Of a stretch of DNA of 32,000 nucleotides, positions 11,850 through 20,220 are shown in pieces. The position numbers and the translations under genes are program-made. Every line of letters begins with the position of its first letter. The stretch's first letter is position 1. Source of the DNA: Candidatus Kuenenia stuttgartensis (GTDB lineage: Bacteria; Planctomycetota; Brocadiia; Brocadiales; Brocadiaceae); assembly GCF_900232105.1 (NCBI RefSeq), contig NZ_LT934425.1, forward strand, positions 1,560,001 through 1,592,000, written 5' to 3'. The notes under the pieces are model-generated. The model saw nothing but the letters and a program-made list of their open reading frames with translations, was not told the DNA's origin and searched no databases.

Positions 11850-12578
11850 TTATCTTCTTCTGGCTAATTGGAAATCTATCGTAGCAGTTTTTCCTGTCTC
11901 TACCGTGACCTCTTGTGATAATTCTTTGAGTTTTTCATGCCAGGTCTTCACCGTATATTTTCCGGGAGGAATATTATTGATGGTATAATTCCCTTCCTTG
12001 TCAGTCATAGCGAAATAAGGATTTGCCAGTGAAAGAACATAACCCGCCATTTCCGCGTGCACATTGCAAAGAAGTGGTGTTTCTCCCAAAACATCAAATT
12101 TCACTTCTTTTATAACGCCCGTTGGGTATGTACCCAGATTAAACTGTAACGCCGCGGTCGGTGGAGAAAAGACATTGTGGCGAACCGCATCACTATTGGG
12201 GAAATCCACTACTGTACCCTTTTGCAAAGCCACAACCCTTGGCACATACGTTAGGTTAAGCTGATCAACAACCGCATGTTCAGTCGGTGGTGGGAAATCA
12301 TTATTGTCGACTTTTTCAAGGAAAACGACGACATTCTCATTTGTCCTTTCCCTTTTACATGTTACTTTCCCTGTAATAGAACCACCGTTCTCAATCTTTG
12401 GGATATTTTGAACCACCCTCTTCAATTTTTGTTGCGCTTCTTCCAATTTCTTCAGGGCATCTGCTGCCTCCTCGGCACTTAAAGCTGCTTTTTCTTCTGC
12501 ATAGAGAGTTTTCAATACATTTGGCATTGATACTGCAAACATCATCGCAAGAATACCAGAAATTAAAATTCTTTTCAT
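11850..12578 (-). CDS. Secreted cupredoxin-like (type-1 Cu motif) protein with a C-terminal carboxypeptidase-regulatory-like beta-sandwich. Paralog of 30791..31534.
   Basis: MKRILISGILAMMFAVSMPNVLKTLYA looks like a signal peptide. The candidate Cu ligands are RHNVF and CNVHAEM (Cys-x2-His-x2-Met, amicyanin-like spacing). The tail YFAMTDKEGNYTINNIPPGKYTVKTW is typical of CarboxypepD_reg. I prefer the ATG at 12578, which has GGAGGAAGG upstream. The 21 extra codons in the track read through a 16-bp hairpin. Confidence 0.6.
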   Translation of the reverse strand: MKRILISGILAMMFAVSMPNVLKTLYAEEKAALSAEEAADALKKLEEAQQKLKRVVQNIPKIENGGSITGKVTCKRERTNENVVVFLEKVDNNDFPPPTEHAVVDQLNLTYVPRVVALQKGTVVDFPNSDAVRHNVFSPPTAALQFNLGTYPTGVIKEVKFDVLGETPLLCNVHAEMAGYVLSLANPYFAMTDKEGNYTINNIPPGKYTVKTWHEKLKELSQEVTVETGKTATIDFQLARRR

Positions 12579-12620
12579 AAGCCTTCGCCTTCCTCCATTT
12601 GAAAATTTACATAAAATTAC

Positions 12621-12666
12621 ACGAGCTAACAAATGTATCAACTTAAGTCAACATTTGTTAGCTCGT
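12621..12666 (-). terminator. Perfect 16-bp-stem hairpin 28 nt after the nxrA stop. Candidate partial terminator or mRNA-stability element.
   Basis: ACGAGCTAACAAATGT (12621-12636) and ACATTTGTTAGCTCGT (12651-12666) are exact reverse complements separated by a 14-nt loop. On the transcribed (minus) strand the hairpin is followed by GTAATTTTATGTAAATTTTC. Confidence 0.45.
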
Positions 12667-12693: not shown

Positions 12694-15600
12694 TTATGCA
12701 TCAACCTTTATTAATTCACCATTCAAAAACTTCTTCATGAAATCATTCTCATTGCCGGCAGTGTATCCGGTTTTAACAGGATCCCAAACACCTTTTCCTC
12801 CCATGCCACCATTCTCAGCCTTTGTGATCTTTACCAATGTTTCCTTTGGCACGGTATTAATACAATGATTATCCGCTTCGAAACCAAAAATAAACTTCAT
12901 CCCGATTTTAGCCTTATGGAAAAGGCTATCCAACTGGTGCATTGGCATCGACCAATCTCTTGTAATACTCTGCTGTGAACCGTAGCGGAAGCTGGACTGA
13001 TAACCGCTCGGAGACAACGCCCTACCATCCGGTCTTGTCTCATGCGCTTGTACCGTTTTGTCGGAAGAAATCCAGGCAGAATGTTTCATCATCGTACAAT
13101 TATACGGGTATGCAGGGTTGTACTTCGCCCTCAACATAAGCCTAGATACCTTATAAAAAGAATCGTTTGGCTTCCATCCTTCATATGGTCTGTCGGCAGG
13201 GTTTGCATCAACATAAACATAGTCTCCGTCCTCAATCCCTAAATCTCTTGCGGCCTGAGGATGAATATGTATTTGATGTTCACCGACACCAGGCATTCTC
13301 TTATCCATCCTGTACGGATCTCCGAAGTTATTGTTCCAGATAAAGTTCCAATCCGTAACTGCCCACTGCGAATGCACGGTATGCCTTGATTTTGGAGTCA
13401 CGCAGTAGAAGTGATACCCTTTTTCCCACAGGAAATTCTTAGTCTTCTTTGTCTCTTCCCATGATTTCTTGATATTCCTGACAGTCCTATCCTCCCAGTA
13501 TTCAGCATTTTCCGGGATGCCATAGTCATCCGGCCGAATATAAGGATTCGTACTCACAATCGCATTTGGTAAATATGGCGTAGCTTCAGGTCCTTCGCGA
13601 TGGACAATAAAGTTTTCTCCATATTCAATAATTTCAGGCTCATCATTATAAGCCTGTAGCCTTCCAGTTGGGGTATAAAATGGCAAGCTCTCGTGTACCT
13701 GTTCCCAGAATGGATGTCTCGGATATGTCCGGAATAACAGCATCGCCACACCCGGTTCTCCATACTTTCCGTTCAATATATCCTCGCATGTGTATCCCTT
13801 CATGGTCGTGCTACCATCGAGCAATCTGTTGATATACACACTCGCTCTTCCTTCAATGGCAAATTTCCAATTGTCTTCAAATCTCTTATCTCTTAGCAAT
13901 TCACCCAATTTCGACGCCATACCCGCAAGTATTTTCACATCATCTTTTGATTCATACACAGGAGTGATACCCGTTTTCCCCCATATTTGAATAAAAGGAT
14001 TTGAACAGGAATTGGTGATTTCAAATTCCTGGAATTCAACCCATGAATTTGCCGGAAACGCAAAGTCCGCGTATTCTATCGAACCTGTTATCTCAATATC
14101 GGTTGACATAATCTGTTCAATGTTTGGATTAACATTCTTCAACATTTGATAGACATGCTTCGCATTATTGATAAGATTTACGTTGGTAAACCAGAGAACC
14201 TTAGTTGGCGAAGGCATGTGCGTTTTTCCGGTAAACACCTTACGCCCATATTTTGGAGTATTCACAATCAAAGGCCTTTCACTGTGATTCCAATAGGCAA
14301 CTTCTTCATCCAGGGCACGCCCTTTAATATTTAAATCTTTCGCAGATGCATATGGGTCTAAATTTGGTTTAAACACATCTTCCGCTACCCACCCATAAAA
14401 CCCTGGGCCACTCCATTTAGAAGCCTGAAAGTTGCCAGCTTTATAATTTCCTGCCCACGTATGTGAACCAGACCCAAAGTATCCAACATTGCCCGTTAAC
14501 ATTACCGGTAAATAGTAAGACCTGTTCATCAACGTTGCATGGAAATAGTGATTTACACCTTCCCCGTAATGGATTGCAACAGGTTTTATCGTGGCAATGT
14601 CTTTCGCCAGCCTTTCGATCAGATCTTTAGGAGAATTGGTCATGCTAACCACAGAATCAATATCATAATCCCGAAGATGTATCTTATACATTTCGAGCAG
14701 CGTCATTACCTCGATTTCTTTTCCATCGATGGTTTTCAACTTAAACGAACCTTCCAAAACAGGATCTATACCTTTTTTAACCAACGTCTCACCAACATCG
14801 TCCCGTGTTATAGCTTTTGGACCTTTTGATTTTGCATCCCAGACAACAAAATCTCCGATTATCTCCCTTTGTTCATCCTTCAGACCTTGAATATGATAAC
14901 TCGGTCCATCGGAAATATCCTGTAATTTGTAATTCGGAATAATATCTTTTGGAGAAACCCTCTTTAAAGTATCAGTCCTTATCAGCAACGGGAAGTCGGT
15001 AAACTTCTTTACATAATCGGCATCATACCATTTGTTGTCAATAAGTATTTTTGTAATACCGAGGAACAGCGCAGTATCGGTGTTGTTCCGAATAGGAATC
15101 CAGTAATCCGCCTTTTGAGCTGAAGGACTATACTCAGGGGTAATAACAACAATCTTTCCACCCCTCTCCATTACCTCTGTGACCCAATGTGCTTCCGGCA
15201 TCTTGTTTTCTATTAAGTTCTTTCCTGTTTGGATCAACAACTTTGAAAAGCGGACGTCGTTCATATCAACATCCGAAGTCTGCAGGCCGTGAGAAAAAGG
15301 ATGTCCTGGAGCCTGGTCACCATGCCATGTATAGTTCGACCAGTTTCTGCCGCCTAATGCCTGGTCAGGACCAACGCCCCGGTTATGTGCATCTACAATG
15401 GCAAGGCAATTATTAAACCGATACATTCCATATTTTCCAATTACCCCAAGAAGACCCATGCCACCACGTCCTTTGAATGTACGTGTGCCGGCGCCCTGCA
15501 TCCTGTCAACCATCTCCTTTGGATACCCCTGGTCAATAAGTTTTTGCGCGCCTTCCGGGCCGCTGTATTTTTTCGTAATATGGATTATGCCCTTTGACGC

Positions 15601-16140
15601 ATAGGTAAAGGCTTCATCCCAAGATGCCCTTAATAATTCATCATTGCCCCTGTTGTCAAACATATACTTCGTCTTGTTCTCCGGCGTCAGTTCCGGAAAA
15701 CCGTCATCCGCCCATCGCTTCCACCCTTTTCGAATCAAAGGGTATCTAAGCCGGTATGGACCGTAAACTCGCCTATGAAACGTGTACCCCTTTAAACACA
15801 TCCTCGGATTCCAGTTCCTTGTCGCCTTGTTTCCATACAAATCGCTATAATTCTGGTGGTCATAGTTTTGTTCAACCCTCATCATTACATTGTTTCTAAC
15901 AAATGCTCGTATTCTGCATGCATGTGTGTCATTCGGAGAACAACAATAAGTAAATGTACGGTCATACTGATACTGATCTCTGTATACACTTTCCCATCTT
16001 CGGTCGGGATAGGTATCTAAAGGATTATCTACCACGACTGCAGGCTTTAGCAACCTGAACGCCATTGCATTCTTAGCAAGCGTCAGGGTCGCTCCGGTTG
16101 CACCGGCTACCTGTAGGAAAGCCCTCCTAGTTAGCTTCAT
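12694..16140 (-). CDS. nxrA: Nitrite oxidoreductase / nitrate reductase catalytic alpha subunit (Mo-bisPGD, type II DMSO-reductase family) with a Tat signal
   Basis: 1148 aa. The twin-arginine signal is MKLTRRAFLQVAGATGATLTLAKNAMA. An N-terminal Cys/His cluster (YCCSPNDTHACRIRAF) is the presumed FS0 site. It is NarG-sized, and its neighbours are nxrB, an NxrC-type gamma subunit and a TorD-like chaperone. Confidence 0.9.
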   Translation of the reverse strand: MKLTRRAFLQVAGATGATLTLAKNAMAFRLLKPAVVVDNPLDTYPDRRWESVYRDQYQYDRTFTYCCSPNDTHACRIRAFVRNNVMMRVEQNYDHQNYSDLYGNKATRNWNPRMCLKGYTFHRRVYGPYRLRYPLIRKGWKRWADDGFPELTPENKTKYMFDNRGNDELLRASWDEAFTYASKGIIHITKKYSGPEGAQKLIDQGYPKEMVDRMQGAGTRTFKGRGGMGLLGVIGKYGMYRFNNCLAIVDAHNRGVGPDQALGGRNWSNYTWHGDQAPGHPFSHGLQTSDVDMNDVRFSKLLIQTGKNLIENKMPEAHWVTEVMERGGKIVVITPEYSPSAQKADYWIPIRNNTDTALFLGITKILIDNKWYDADYVKKFTDFPLLIRTDTLKRVSPKDIIPNYKLQDISDGPSYHIQGLKDEQREIIGDFVVWDAKSKGPKAITRDDVGETLVKKGIDPVLEGSFKLKTIDGKEIEVMTLLEMYKIHLRDYDIDSVVSMTNSPKDLIERLAKDIATIKPVAIHYGEGVNHYFHATLMNRSYYLPVMLTGNVGYFGSGSHTWAGNYKAGNFQASKWSGPGFYGWVAEDVFKPNLDPYASAKDLNIKGRALDEEVAYWNHSERPLIVNTPKYGRKVFTGKTHMPSPTKVLWFTNVNLINNAKHVYQMLKNVNPNIEQIMSTDIEITGSIEYADFAFPANSWVEFQEFEITNSCSNPFIQIWGKTGITPVYESKDDVKILAGMASKLGELLRDKRFEDNWKFAIEGRASVYINRLLDGSTTMKGYTCEDILNGKYGEPGVAMLLFRTYPRHPFWEQVHESLPFYTPTGRLQAYNDEPEIIEYGENFIVHREGPEATPYLPNAIVSTNPYIRPDDYGIPENAEYWEDRTVRNIKKSWEETKKTKNFLWEKGYHFYCVTPKSRHTVHSQWAVTDWNFIWNNNFGDPYRMDKRMPGVGEHQIHIHPQAARDLGIEDGDYVYVDANPADRPYEGWKPNDSFYKVSRLMLRAKYNPAYPYNCTMMKHSAWISSDKTVQAHETRPDGRALSPSGYQSSFRYGSQQSITRDWSMPMHQLDSLFHKAKIGMKFIFGFEADNHCINTVPKETLVKITKAENGGMGGKGVWDPVKTGYTAGNENDFMKKFLNGELIKVDA

Positions 16141-16185: not shown

Positions 16186-17157
16186 TTATATAATGTGATG
16201 AGAAATCGCTTTTCTCGATTTATACATTTCAACACATCGGTCACAAGCTCCATCTTCCGCTGACCAGTTGGGAAAGTCCTGCCTTATATCTTGAACCGTT
16301 TCTATGTCTTCTTCAAGATTTTCGACCCATTTGTATGTCCTAAACTGGCACAAGGGGCAAAGAGCGCCTGGCAAAAGAATTTTTTTCTTCTGTCTTAGAT
16401 TTTCAGGAATTTTGTCATCAGATAATCTCAGAACTTTATTAACATCATCTGCCAATTCCAATATCTTTCCGTGTGTGAGGTTTTCATCATTCCAGAGTAC
16501 ATCAAAAATCGCCTTTTTTTCCTCTTCAGAGAACCCCATATAGAGGGCAGAAAATTCTTCAAATCTGCTTTCCCTACTACCAATAGTCTCTTTGCCATCC
16601 TTCAATATGCGGCTATCTACATAAATATCCCAAAAAGTGCTGTATCGCTCCGTTACAATGCACTGTTCCATAGGATTTCCCCCCAGAAACTCACTTCTAT
16701 AACCAAACGCATCGCTTAACATATCAAGTATGTGCATTATTTCGTGCCGCAAAAATTTCTCCAGAAAAATATGATCACGAAAACGCTCCGCCAAAAGCTT
16801 TACTTTCATCCTTTTTTTTGCATTTTTCCGATTCAAATCACTTACAAGGTCAGACCCTTCATCATGCTTGCTTTTTGCTTTCACTATTACTGCACCAGCC
16901 ATTAAGTCCTCTAACTCTTTAAATTCATCAAGCGCCTTTTCCACCAGCGCAACAAATCCTAGCTTGTGAAAGAAATCCCACTCCACTTTTCTGAACTGTA
17001 TTGGTCGTTCTTCAAGAGAAAAATCCTCGTATATAGGATCAACCCGAAGATGATATTCCTCTGAAAGCTTTGTATCCCCTTGTTCTTCCTTCGCCCTAAT
17101 CGCAGTGAATACAACCTCTTCAATCAAACCGGGGTCAAACTCAAGCTTCATCATCAA
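16186..17157 (-). CDS. Hypothetical cytoplasmic protein with an HExxH metallopeptidase-like motif and a C-terminal 4-Cys zinc ribbon
   Basis: 323 aa with no signal peptide. HEIMH is at residues 138-142 (nt 16732-16746, checked on the DNA) in the context FLRHEIMHILDM. CPLC (267-270) and CDRC (305-308) lie near the C-terminus. The start ATG overlaps the chaperone stop by 4 nt (ATGA at 17154-17157). Confidence 0.7.
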   Translation of the reverse strand: MMMKLEFDPGLIEEVVFTAIRAKEEQGDTKLSEEYHLRVDPIYEDFSLEERPIQFRKVEWDFFHKLGFVALVEKALDEFKELEDLMAGAVIVKAKSKHDEGSDLVSDLNRKNAKKRMKVKLLAERFRDHIFLEKFLRHEIMHILDMLSDAFGYRSEFLGGNPMEQCIVTERYSTFWDIYVDSRILKDGKETIGSRESRFEEFSALYMGFSEEEKKAIFDVLWNDENLTHGKILELADDVNKVLRLSDDKIPENLRQKKKILLPGALCPLCQFRTYKWVENLEEDIETVQDIRQDFPNWSAEDGACDRCVEMYKSRKAISHHII

Positions 17158-17963
17158 TTATCTCCCATCTCGTCAACAGAAGAAGCGCACGATAAACATT
17201 CATCAGGAGCCCCTGCTACAACATCCTGATTTAGATCTGACTCTGTGAATGTTTCGGTCTGAACGCCCAACAAGTCCATTTCTAACTTTATAAACTCCTT
17301 CATTACTTCAGAAATGGCAAAATAAAAACCGTCTATAGATTTTCTCCCGAAAAGAAGGGCAAAAAGAGGTATCCATTTACCTGCATGTTCTTTTAAAAAT
17401 TTTTTCTGAGCATCCAGGCAAATTTCAGCCTCTTCATTTCCATGATTTTCTATTGCATACGCTTGTTTATAAAGAAGAAATTGCAGAAACTCTAATTCCA
17501 CGCTGATATGATCACAGCGTTCTTTTTCTTCTTCAGAAATATCCAGACCAAACGCACGGTAAAACCCTTGTATGTCCGCTAAATCCTGCACCTGCTGAAA
17601 CACATGAGCAGCACCATATTGACCCTCATACAGAGGACAATCCTTCGATATGGTATGCCCAACTATGCGATTATATATCCGTTGTAATTTTTCTATGTCC
17701 GCTGTACTATAGAACTCCTGTACATTTTTTAAAGATTCCAACATCGCCGTCAAACTATCACCTTCCGTGTAACATCCTTTGATCTTATCCACAAGTTCAT
17801 TAAAATCCTCGCCCTCTAAAACGGAAAGTTTTTTTTCTTCAGGAAATAGATAGCATGTTGACAATACCTGATACAAAGCACTTCTCGCCAGCAAATTCCC
17901 GACTTCTGCAACTTGGTCAGTTTCCTGTAGATCACTATTATTCACAACCATAAAATACCTCAA
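17154..17963 (-). CDS. TorD/NarJ/DdhD-like redox-enzyme maturation chaperone for NxrA
   Basis: 269 aa, cytoplasmic and all-helical in appearance. LLARSALYQVLSTCYLFPEE...FYRAFGL...ELEFLQFL is the pattern I associate with TorD-family chaperones. It lies 2 nt after the nxrB stop and has a CLSC motif near its acidic C-terminus. Confidence 0.7.
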   Translation of the reverse strand: MRYFMVVNNSDLQETDQVAEVGNLLARSALYQVLSTCYLFPEEKKLSVLEGEDFNELVDKIKGCYTEGDSLTAMLESLKNVQEFYSTADIEKLQRIYNRIVGHTISKDCPLYEGQYGAAHVFQQVQDLADIQGFYRAFGLDISEEEKERCDHISVELEFLQFLLYKQAYAIENHGNEEAEICLDAQKKFLKEHAGKWIPLFALLFGRKSIDGFYFAISEVMKEFIKLEMDLLGVQTETFTESDLNQDVVAGAPDECLSCASSVDEMGDN

Positions 17964-17965
17964 AA

Positions 17966-19198
17966 TTAAATCGAGTTATAATGCTTATCGGGTCTAATGT
18001 GTATCGGTTCTTCCACCGTAGTTCGTACCACTTCCTTGCCATCTTCGCCAAATCCAATTACCGTGTCATTATACATCGTAAATTTTTTACCGTGGATCTC
18101 CGTCTCAAACACCTTCGGGCCTTCTTCGATCTTATATTCATACACAATTGTCTGAGTCATCCTGAACAATGACATTACCGCTAGCAATTCCCTTGAAGGC
18201 ACCATAAACTTTTCAATTGCCTCATCCACACCTGGCCCAAACATCTGTCTTAAATATGCCCTTGGAGCCCATCTTGGAGGAATATAATAAATGTTAGGTT
18301 CCGTGCCAAACTGTGGATACAGTGGCAGTGCTATCTTTTGATGTCTTATTAACCATGTAATCGGATTTTTCGGGTTGTCGTCAAGGAATCCCTGTAAACG
18401 TATTTGCCCAACACAAGCAGACATACATCTCGTTTCCATCGGACGTCCGTCCGTCAGTGAATCACGACCCTCAATTCTCGGATAACAGGCAATACACTTT
18501 TCACTAACCCTGGTCAAACCCCTATACATCGGCTTCTTATAAGGACACTGCTCCACACACTTCCTGTAGCCACGGCACCGTTTTTGGTCTATCAGCACAA
18601 TCCCATCTTCTTTTCTTTTGTAAATAGCCTTTCTGGGACAGGCCGCCAAACATCCGGGATAAGTACAATGATTACATATCCTCTGAAGGTAAAAAAACCA
18701 GCGGCTATGCTCCGGCAACGTTGAATATTCTCCCGGCTGATTGCTGCTCTTCGCTGTATCTTCTCCAAAATTCGGCGACCGCCACTCCTTGTCTTCCGGA
18801 ATATACCCCACTGCCCACTGGTTAATATTCTTCTTTTTTGCCACCTCGAAAATGGTATCCCCCTCATAGGTGCCATAAGGCGCTCCTGTACCATATTGCG
18901 AGGTCTCTTTGTCTTTATCATCTGTGTACCAAATGTTATCAGGACTATCAATCAACTTGAGCGTCTTAACATCCCATGATTGCGGAAATCCACCGTAAGG
19001 TTTTGTCTCGACGTTATTCCACCACATGAACTCCTGCCCTTTATTAAAAGTCCAGGTACTTTTACATGCCATGGTGCATGTTTGACATGCAATACACCTG
19101 TTAATATTAAACACGGCAGCAAATTGATGTTTCGGCCTGGATTCAAAATAGGGATACTCCATACGTCTCCCTAAATGCCAGTTATGTACAAGTGTCAT
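17966..19198 (-). CDS. nxrB: Nitrite oxidoreductase / nitrate reductase beta subunit (four Fe-S clusters)
   Basis: 410 aa. CIACQTCTMAC, CNHCTYPGCLAACP, CRGYRKCVEQCP and CIACYPR...CMSAC are NarH-type ferredoxin motifs. It has no signal peptide, so export would be by Tat hitch-hiking with NxrA. Confidence 0.9.
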   Translation of the reverse strand: MTLVHNWHLGRRMEYPYFESRPKHQFAAVFNINRCIACQTCTMACKSTWTFNKGQEFMWWNNVETKPYGGFPQSWDVKTLKLIDSPDNIWYTDDKDKETSQYGTGAPYGTYEGDTIFEVAKKKNINQWAVGYIPEDKEWRSPNFGEDTAKSSNQPGEYSTLPEHSRWFFYLQRICNHCTYPGCLAACPRKAIYKRKEDGIVLIDQKRCRGYRKCVEQCPYKKPMYRGLTRVSEKCIACYPRIEGRDSLTDGRPMETRCMSACVGQIRLQGFLDDNPKNPITWLIRHQKIALPLYPQFGTEPNIYYIPPRWAPRAYLRQMFGPGVDEAIEKFMVPSRELLAVMSLFRMTQTIVYEYKIEEGPKVFETEIHGKKFTMYNDTVIGFGEDGKEVVRTTVEEPIHIRPDKHYNSI

Positions 19199-19251: not shown

Positions 19252-20220
19252 TTATTGCCATGCAATTCTTTCCAACGACAGCGGGTGCCATTGTATAGAA
19301 ATGTTTTTTTGCCCGTTTCTATCTTCTCTATCACCATTCCACACTGCCATATTGAAGTAAGTGCTTTCCCCCGGCACAAACTGAACATCCAGAGGATCTC
19401 CCGTATTTAACGACCGGCAAAACACCACAGTCCATTTCTTGTTTTCAAATTTACTGCACCCATCCACGTCCTGATGATCCTGTGACGTTAATGTACCAAA
19501 ACCTTCAGCATTTAAATCTTCAACGGCTCTACCCCGAGGCAAAGAAAGCAAATTATGAGCAGCATACCCACCTGACAATTCAGCAGCACTCTGTATCACT
19601 CCTTTATGATAATTTACACTGTGCGGGTTAGTACTGAAATCATCGTGCATGTTAGGATATCTCGCCGGACATTCCTCTATGCCACCAGTAGCTAGCAAAT
19701 CTGCTTCCCAGTCAGCCTTCCAATGCCACAAATTTACAGGCTTTTGCCTATCGCCCATTCTAGGGCTGAATGGCTCTTCCGGACTTATCGTAATCTTCCC
19801 CAAGGGAAACATTAGTGCAGCCCCATCTCTAAACTCTTGAGTTGCGATAGCCTGTTTATTATCGGTGGCATCGTCCCATATCACCTGGAAATAAATCGTA
19901 ATTCCATCGTGAATAGCCTTTATCTCTGCAGAATTCACCGAGCCCCCTCCGTTGGGAAACGCCTTATCTTGCTTTTGTAATTTAACCTGTACCCCTTCGG
20001 CATTTTTAAACGCACCTTCCAAAGCACCAACGGTGATATGCGCGGGGACATCAATTTGCATATATTTCACGTTCAAAACTTCTTTTGCCGGCGTAAGCTC
20101 TTCTTCCGCCACGCCTTTTACCCCTTCCGCTTCCTCCGCGATACATAGCGCAACGCTCAAAAACAAACATCCCAGGAGGGCTACACTACTACTCCCCAAT
20201 AAGCGATAAAATTTTTTCAT
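19252..20220 (-). CDS. nxrC: NXR gamma subunit, heme-b-binding EbdC/DdhC/ClrC family, Sec signal
   Basis: 322 aa. The signal is MKKFYRLLGSSSVALLGCLFLSVALCIAEEA. There is no CxxCH. The blocks WDDATDN...FRDGAALMFP...PRMGD...VNLWHWKADW...AVWNGDREDRNGQK are shared with the C-terminal half of ORF 25052..26659. A strong SD (GGGAGGAG) precedes the start. Confidence 0.8.
   Translation of the reverse strand: MKKFYRLLGSSSVALLGCLFLSVALCIAEEAEGVKGVAEEELTPAKEVLNVKYMQIDVPAHITVGALEGAFKNAEGVQVKLQKQDKAFPNGGGSVNSAEIKAIHDGITIYFQVIWDDATDNKQAIATQEFRDGAALMFPLGKITISPEEPFSPRMGDRQKPVNLWHWKADWEADLLATGGIEECPARYPNMHDDFSTNPHSVNYHKGVIQSAAELSGGYAAHNLLSLPRGRAVEDLNAEGFGTLTSQDHQDVDGCSKFENKKWTVVFCRSLNTGDPLDVQFVPGESTYFNMAVWNGDREDRNGQKNISIQWHPLSLERIAWQ

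Follow-up and report, generated by a model that had tools for sequence, protein, structure and literature searches.

What is the function of the gene that lies between the chaperone gene and nxrA in the nitrite oxidoreductase (NXR) cluster of Candidatus Kuenenia stuttgartensis? We addressed this question in a 32,000-nucleotide stretch of DNA (the window; positions 1,560,001 to 1,592,000 of the forward strand of contig NZ_LT934425.1, assembly GCF_900232105.1), in which the minus strand between 11.8 and 20.2 kb carries, in order, nxrC, nxrB, a NarJ/TorD chaperone gene, the accessory gene in question (hereafter X), nxrA and a CarboxypepD_reg gene. The preliminary description of the window had placed X inside an nxrB-chaperone-X-nxrA core, and this order was confirmed. 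X (16186..17154, minus strand; 322 amino acids (aa) from the ATG at 17154, stop codon at 16186-16188) encodes a protein 99% identical to KsCSTR_07990 of Candidatus Kuenenia stuttgartiensis, and the published K. stuttgartiensis nxr cluster comprises kustd1699-1713, with kustd1700, 1703 and 1704 as NXR-A, -B and -C (PMC8387239). From this identity and this layout, X is kustd1701, a gene annotated as 'Unknown protein' (PMC6423088) in the cluster for periplasmic-type NXR, the source of most nitrate on Earth (PMC8387239). We conclude that X probably encodes an accessory protein that acts in the cytoplasm, is not a structural component of the enzyme and serves the periplasmic (Nitrospira/Nitrospina/anammox-type) NXR family specifically, with an assembly role like that of FdhE.

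The neighbourhood of X was compared across 166 surveyed loci (designated by L numbers below). These came from a genome scan with one genome per GTDB species, which gave 463 confirmed loci of which the best 80 were fetched (23 anammox, 57 Nitrospirales), from metagenomes scanned with the clade of most variable motif as seed, where 80 of 187 matches were inspected, and from look-ups of distant relatives, which added six more. X co-occurred with the periplasmic (twin-arginine translocation (Tat)-type) NxrA/NxrB clade and its chaperone at all of the best 80 of the 463 genome loci, and among the 47 metagenome loci flanked by 3 kb of sequence or more, 43 had NxrA/NxrB/chaperone-like genes, the NxrA-like proteins being 57-90% identical to a reference NxrA. 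Every anammox locus (23/23) has the order NxrC-NxrB-chaperone-X-NxrA, usually followed by the CarboxypepD_reg gene. At every Nitrospirales locus (57/57) a TorD-like chaperone gene lies about 0.9-1.6 kb downstream of X and is followed, where the locus is long enough, by an NxrC-like gene; in Nitrospira sp. DJ (L053) the gene between X and the chaperone encodes a 203-aa NapF-like 4Fe-4S protein with a twin-arginine motif. The six distant loci, which include one from a Verrucomicrobia-labelled metagenome-assembled genome (MAG; L083) and one from a Phycisphaerales-labelled MAG (L085), share the order cytochrome c-EB_dh gamma subunit, alpha subunit of 1153-1166 aa, small open reading frame (ORF), beta subunit of 423-425 aa, Nitrate_red_del chaperone and X, with two extra hemerythrin genes alongside the small ORF in L085. 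The X proteins of L081 and L083 are 27-33% identical to Kuenenia X, and the alpha subunits of the same loci carry Tat signals and are 61-62% identical to Kuenenia NxrA. At least five gene orders were found among the metagenome loci (B-chaperone-X-A; X-A-small-B-chaperone-C; C-A-small-B-chaperone-X-MOSC-MobA; A-small-B-chaperone-X-C; X-ferredoxin-A); in L099 the contig ends behind X in a Tat-signal start, and in L162 X itself lies at the contig end, with its neighbourhood beyond the sequence. X has therefore been inherited with the chaperone and NxrA/NxrB-like genes in anammox bacteria, Nitrospirales and Verrucomicrobia-/Phycisphaerae-labelled MAGs, through repeated reshuffling of gene order. 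It is also surrounded by cofactor-maturation genes, namely those for MOSC, a MobA-like nucleoside triphosphate (NTP) transferase, a NapF-like ferredoxin and an NUBPL/Mrp Fe-S NTPase. The Nitrotoga enzyme, a more distant type II dimethyl sulfoxide (DMSO) reductase, is encoded by nxrABC plus a chaperone gene, nxrD, with no X-like gene (bioRxiv 10.1101/317552). Given the co-occurrence with the periplasmic NXR clade in the surveyed loci, the earlier suggestion that this NXR type has an extra maturation factor of its own still stands, and it is the zincin part of that suggestion, considered below, that has been weakened.

X and the NarJ/TorD-type chaperone gene share a transcript, and their translation is usually coupled as well. 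At the 77 loci with the chaperone gene directly upstream of X, 59 pairs overlap or lie within 30 nucleotides (nt) of each other (16 overlapping, mostly by -4 or -1, and 43 at 0-30 nt). In the window the chaperone gene (kustd1702; 17154..17963, minus strand) encodes 269 aa from a TTG codon, the length of Q1PZD6 (269 aa); its product matched Pfam Nitrate_red_del (PF02613) at 2.9e-20, and its match to the chaperone model for type II DMSO reductases, TIGR03482 (6.4e-27), scored 94.8 bits, below the curated cutoff of 152.3 bits. The chaperone gene can thus begin at a TTG that lies only 2 nt after the nxrB stop (17955-17975, minus strand), which would make nxrB, the chaperone gene and X a near gap-free translational unit, unlike nxrA, which starts 45 nt past the X stop behind an AT-rich spacer with its own AGGAG. 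At the junction of chaperone and X (17149..17157, minus strand; TTGATGATG) the chaperone TGA stop (17156-17154) overlaps TTG and ATG start candidates: minus-strand bases 17157 to 17154 read TTGA, the stop shares two bases with the TTG and one with the first ATG (17154-17152; TGATG), and a Shine-Dalgarno-like run, GGGAG, lies upstream of the start. The overlap reported in the preliminary description thus exists, in the form TGATG or TTGA and not ATGA. The length of 323 aa given there applies to the ORF (16186..17157, minus strand) read from the TTG at 17157; starting at the first ATG gives 322 aa and at the second (17151) 321 aa, and it is the second that fits the N-termini of orthologues (MKIEFDP...) best. 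The protein has no hydrophobic segment (maximum Kyte-Doolittle value over 19 residues of 0.82), an isoelectric point (pI) of 5.2 and an acidic N-terminus, and so fits a cytoplasmic protein without a signal peptide, as had been proposed.

The NarJ-like chaperones adjacent to X share a short Cys-containing C-terminal tail, which in the window includes CLSC at about 17187-17198 (minus strand). The tail takes the form DECLSCA in anammox bacteria, ERLCAxCG in loci of the L081/L083/L105 type, FECGAQD in Nitrospirales and FxCG in L085 and L086; the tail includes a CxxC in 23/23 anammox loci, 46/60 other loci and none of 55 Nitrospirales loci, where it has a single Cys. We know of no such tail in classical NarJ/TorD proteins; the neighbouring X might dock on it or share a metal with it.

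Published data describe both transcription and protein abundance at this locus. Both kustd1701 and kustd1702 are transcribed, and both were down-regulated with the rest of the cluster when nitrite was replaced by nitric oxide (NO), kustd1701 by 2.4- and 5.5-fold; kustd1701 and the chaperone went undetected in proteomes in which NxrA, NxrB and NxrC were abundant (PMC6423088), data that lend no support to the stoichiometric co-expression anticipated from the gene overlap. Purified NXR and NXR tubules contain subunits A, B, C and T only (PMC8387239). X is not a subunit of purified NXR, and a structural-subunit role was rejected on its absence from both the purified enzyme and the proteomes. Lucker et al. 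(2013) listed 'one putative zinc finger' protein in the gene set conserved among the nxr regions of Kuenenia, Nitrospira and Nitrospina (PMC3578206), a gene that is most likely kustd1701 (the supplement did not confirm the locus tag), and a 2025 comparative study noted 'several proteins of unknown function' in the Nitrospirales NxrC/TorD cluster (PMC12342949). X has accordingly been noticed in the literature already, never having been defined as a family or given a function; within the literature open to search, NXR assembly is discussed solely via the presumed TorD-like chaperone.

The family of X is large. When 1.84 billion cluster representatives (50% identity clusters) were searched with a profile, 928 clusters passed E <= 1e-3, of which 243 also passed E <= 1e-30, and nearly all members are about 300-340 aa long and match from end to end. 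X had no match to Pfam and NCBIfam models, including PF02613 and TIGR03482, unlike its upstream neighbour; PDB sequences searched with three profiles contained no relative of the family; and Foldseek searches with full-length and central-domain models against 350,542 PDB chains gave no match at E <= 0.001, the best E-values being a non-significant 0.25 (full model, to the M4 protease vibriolysin) and 0.5, with template modelling (TM) scores of about 0.2. The preliminary description had been unable to place X in a named family, and these searches agree. Scanned against Pfam at E <= 10, 64 members of the family matched 40 Pfam families, 25 of them listed, and gave solely sub-threshold matches to zincins (M76/Atp23 in four members, M91 in three, M90 and WLM in one each) and to zinc fingers. 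Among the 25 listed families the SprT-like profile was absent and WLM appeared once, at E = 0.16; one UniRef relative is automatically named 'SprT-like domain-containing', and SprT membership was rejected because a profile match was absent. Eight longer family members checked for Rosetta-stone fusions carried no extra Pfam domain. Since neither sequence nor structure searches returned a significant match, the resemblance to zincins is one of motif and local topology, and the zincin-like context read from the sequence in the preliminary description, matched by no zincin family in sequence or by Foldseek on the AlphaFold models, is weakened.

The AlphaFold2 model of full-length X (predicted local distance difference test (pLDDT) score 86.6, predicted TM score (pTM) 0.76) has N-terminal helices, three strands, the motif helix, five more helices and a C-terminal ribbon plus helix; a model of the central domain (residues 82-250) reached a pLDDT of 92.1. 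The N-terminal domain (aa 1-83; 16906..17154, minus strand) is predicted to be all-helical, with a pLDDT of about 90-96 and conserved residues Y42, R50, F54 and F62. The central alpha/beta domain (aa 84-250; 16405..16905, minus strand) comprises the three beta-strands, the motif helix and further helices, with E138, D144, F150, Y152, R170, W175 and R182 conserved. Its HEIMH motif (aa 137-141; 16732..16746, minus strand), the position of which was as previously described, is part of the signature xHExxHxxDML(D)xxFGY, with D144 at 16723-16725, and sits in a predicted helix (128-146) behind strands 87-92, 100-104 and 115-120, that is, as a helix-borne HExxH. The C-terminal domain (aa 260-322; 16189..16377, minus strand) is zinc-ribbon-like, and its CPLC (16348-16359) and CDRC (16234-16245), again where the preliminary description had located them, form two CxxC knuckles about 35 residues apart (C266/C269 and C304/C307), the pattern of a putative Cys4 zinc ribbon or treble clef. 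Chance would give about 0.03 HExxH motifs in a protein of this composition, and 17 anammox orthologues, ranging down to 49% identity, all have H137, E138, H141, D144 and the four Cys unchanged; the motifs are therefore not due to chance.

Across the family the picture is different for the ribbon and for the HExxH motif. In a diverse alignment of 64 full-length members the family signature is [HR]ExxHxxDML(D)PxFGY ... RYRxLWDIxIDGRL ... PGxxCPLCxFPTxxW ... DFPxWxPxxGxCxRCxExY. C266, C269, C304, C307, W175 and W297 are conserved in 64/64 members, D144, F150 and R182 in 63/64, E138 in 62/64, W276 in 61/64, and R170 and Y152 in 59/64; H137 is kept in 52/64, with Arg in 10, and H141 in 56/64. HExxH is intact in 46 of the 64 (the less biased figure, a later census having been skewed by a targeted search), and 18 (about 28%) lack one or both His or the Glu. 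In one large clade defined by clustering, whose source-named members come from Phycisphaerae or Planctomycetes MAGs, 78 of 97 sequences have RExxH, and scattered replacements of the HExxH His residues occur in other lineages as well. Conservation of the motif thus held within the anammox orthologues and failed family-wide. RExxH and other variants keep the chaperone-X operon position: among the loci of the RExxH-type clade, L085 and L087 encode RExxH and L086 GExxH, and L087 in addition lacks the ribbon. It is one of a subclade of about 246-280 aa that stops right after the central domain, without the Cys4 module. Because members without the His ligands or without the ribbon keep the operon slot, the function common to the family can require neither a zincin catalytic centre nor the ribbon, and so must reside in the conserved N-terminal and central domains.

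The ribbonless members include those at L087 (10001-10843, still behind a chaperone gene) and L168 (139-879, preceding a B12-binding radical SAM gene) and P0395-P0422; in Nitrospira L053, too, there is a radical SAM/B12 gene, located downstream of NxrC.

X is probably, then, a second assembly helper and not the protease that its HExxH suggests. In the cytoplasm, it and the chaperone would together handle apo-NxrA (or NxrAB) while cofactors are inserted and before Tat export, X serving as an assembly or proofreading factor analogous to FdhE. The conserved N-terminal and central domains would bind the partner proteins, and the Cys4 ribbon may be an accessory interaction module stabilised by metal. 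Where HExxH is kept, the site most likely carries a metal with a structural or ligand-binding role, in which Arg would be able to take its place; a proteolytic centre needed throughout the family is unlikely. We speculate that the His-to-Arg change preserves a cationic centre, metal or guanidinium, that binds an anionic or peptide ligand.

We infer that the closest functional analogue of X is FdhE (IPR024064), a Cys-rich metal-binding protein that is systematically linked, alongside FdhD, to Tat-exported formate dehydrogenases and for which pre-export proofreading has been suggested (PMC10609526). Both proteins appear to be cytoplasmic, with CxxC-type metal sites in FdhE, and both lie outside the final enzyme, linked to Tat-exported enzymes of the molybdenum-bis(pyranopterin guanine dinucleotide) (Mo-bisPGD) type beside a separate chaperone. 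E. coli FdhE is about 300 aa long, with a helical N-terminal part. Homology was not found, however: the FdhE profile gave no match at E <= 10 in the listed results for 64 members, and the P. aeruginosa FdhE structure 2fiy was not among the listed Foldseek matches. X has two CxxC pairs, not the four of FdhE, adds an HExxH-bearing central domain, and is partnered with a chaperone of NarJ/TorD type, not FdhD. The NarJ/TorD/DmsD proteins (PF02613, TIGR03482) are likewise operon-encoded, cytoplasmic, non-structural factors for Mo-bisPGD enzymes; similarity to X is absent, and X accompanies a NarJ-like chaperone instead of replacing it. NapD and NapF of the periplasmic nitrate reductase, a different enzyme clade, resemble X and its chaperone in being two dedicated cytoplasmic helpers for one Tat-exported Mo-bisPGD enzyme, and a NapF-like ferredoxin is encoded next to X family members in L053 and L124, although their sequences and folds are unrelated to that of X. 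We know of no counterpart of X in the canonical narGHJI, ebdABCD, serABDC, ddhABDC and pcrABCD operons. The description that fits X best is that of a new variant, without structural assignment, within the known class of enzyme-specific maturation proteins. A second gene thus travels with the NXR chaperone across four bacterial groups, as part of a large family without a profile or structural relative; the pair parallels the division of labour between FdhD and FdhE, and X is a concrete candidate for an essential NXR maturation step, relevant to NXR biogenesis and to heterologous expression.

Several observations weigh against an NXR-dedicated assembly factor of this kind. The argument is built from gene neighbourhood and conservation. 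In Nitrospirales nxrAB is not within 10 kb of X, and at one locus, L166, the sole clear exception, no NXR gene occurs within 2 kb upstream or 5 kb downstream. HExxH, moreover, is strictly retained in the anammox, Nitrospirales and Verrucomicrobia-labelled clades (153 of 159, the count for the Verrucomicrobia-labelled cluster, and 78 of 84), which keeps a lineage-specific proteolytic role as an alternative, if an unlikely one. X would then be an active zincin-type metalloprotease with NxrA or a partner as its substrate in maturation, perhaps trimming the Tat signal or exerting quality control on it, by analogy with the hydrogenase maturation endopeptidases. The predicted placement of HExxH on a helix directly after a three-stranded sheet is a zincin-like topology, shared with the minimal zincins (Atp23/M76, MtfA/M90, SprT/WLM); both His and the Glu are invariant in the anammox orthologues; and the sub-threshold Pfam matches and the top, non-significant Foldseek match to vibriolysin point in the same direction. 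Among the minimal zincins, Atp23 offers a precedent for an assembly-chaperone role that is independent of proteolysis. The matches to minimal zincins are nonetheless below significance and none to any peptidase is significant, about 28% of diverse members have lost the His ligands, as has most of the Phycisphaerae-containing cluster, the motif variants keep their place behind the chaperone gene, and no third metal ligand was identified, the candidates being D144 (63/64), D/E at 169 or 180, and H228. To our knowledge no processing other than removal of the signal peptide has been reported for the maturation of type II DMSO reductases, which we counted against a protease.

The cofactor genes around X would also suit a cofactor-specific carrier or insertase that delivers Mo-bisPGD or the Fe-S cluster FS0 to NxrA and is not a general co-chaperone, an explanation that we regard as decidedly unlikely. 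MOSC and MobA-like genes directly follow X in many loci of the Verrucomicrobia-labelled-MAG type; a NapF-like ferredoxin gene adjoins X in L053; X is followed in L124 by genes for an NUBPL/Mrp Fe-S NTPase and then a NapF-like ferredoxin; in L132 it lies between the gene for a different, 762-aa Mo-bisPGD oxidoreductase and a MOSC gene; and the FS0 cluster of NxrA has an unusual Asp ligand (PMC8387239). Against a carrier, no nucleotide-, pterin- or Fe-S-binding fold was recognised by Foldseek or Pfam, the Cys4 module is missing in one subclade, and the adjoining cofactor genes vary by lineage. We consider it very improbable that X is a zinc-finger transcriptional or post-transcriptional nxr regulator, a redox-active rubredoxin-like electron carrier or a hidden NXR subunit. 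The Cys4 ribbon and the 'putative zinc finger' label in the literature (PMC3578206; its assignment to kustd1701 is inferred) would suit a regulator, as would the position of X downstream of a two-component/sigma-54 regulator pair in L053; the protein has a pI of 5.2, however, gave no helix-turn-helix or other nucleic-acid-binding domain match in Pfam, and is coupled in most lineages to the chaperone and not to regulators. A regulator role was rejected on the acidity of the protein and the absence of a DNA-binding domain. The ribbon is dispensable in one subclade, and a hidden subunit is at odds with the absence of X from purified NXR and tubules and with its lack of a signal peptide.

Returning to X as an assembly factor, a more specific version can be put forward tentatively, as a possibility that we would not favour on present evidence: the X family may be a zincin-derived peptide-binding module of new structure that joins the NarJ-like chaperone and apo-NxrA in a ternary complex and serves as a Tat-export checkpoint for periplasmic enzymes of the NXR type, the metal site or the Arg clamping a specific peptide, for instance the twin-arginine signal of NxrA or the Cys tail of the chaperone. 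If this were true, X would be the missing component for heterologous production of active periplasmic NXR. The recurrent His-to-Arg change also makes the family a possible natural example of metal-site replacement in a pseudo-enzyme.

The remaining genes of the cluster in the window, all on the minus strand, are nxrC (kustd1704; 19252..20220), which encodes the haem b subunit of the EB_dh family, nxrB (kustd1703; 17966..19198), which encodes the Fe-S subunit, nxrA (kustd1700; 12694..16140), which encodes the 1148-aa Mo-bisPGD catalytic subunit with its Tat signal, and kustd1699 (11850-12641), which encodes a 263-aa protein with a signal-anchor-like N-terminus and a CarboxypepD_reg/prealbumin-like C-terminal domain. 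A kustd1699 homologue with 67-84% identity lies 3' of nxrA in every anammox locus of sufficient extent.

Some minor features of the other loci were also recorded. The chaperone-X-MOSC-MobA block recurs in many L081-type loci (L081 10921-11965; L114, L125, L133, L136, L147, L149, L160 and others). A NapF-like poly-ferredoxin with a twin-arginine-like N-terminus adjoins X in L053 (11067-11678), L124 (3074-4616, with the NUBPL/Mrp NTPase gene between) and L092-L094, and Nitrotoga nxr operons are reportedly followed by a gene for an NBP35-like NTPase (bioRxiv 10.1101/317552). The X family member at L166 (1551-3137) has an insertion of ~45 residues in the central domain and stands beside CcoG/FixH-like and DsbD-like genes. 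The small ORF between the alpha and beta genes (94-175 aa, beginning MPKDEFD...) is a conserved feature of clusters outside anammox bacteria and Nitrospirales, with none in the Kuenenia window; it lies at 7649-7933 in L081, where it had no Pfam match, and at 7045-7569 in L083, and further matches to it were found in L096-L165.

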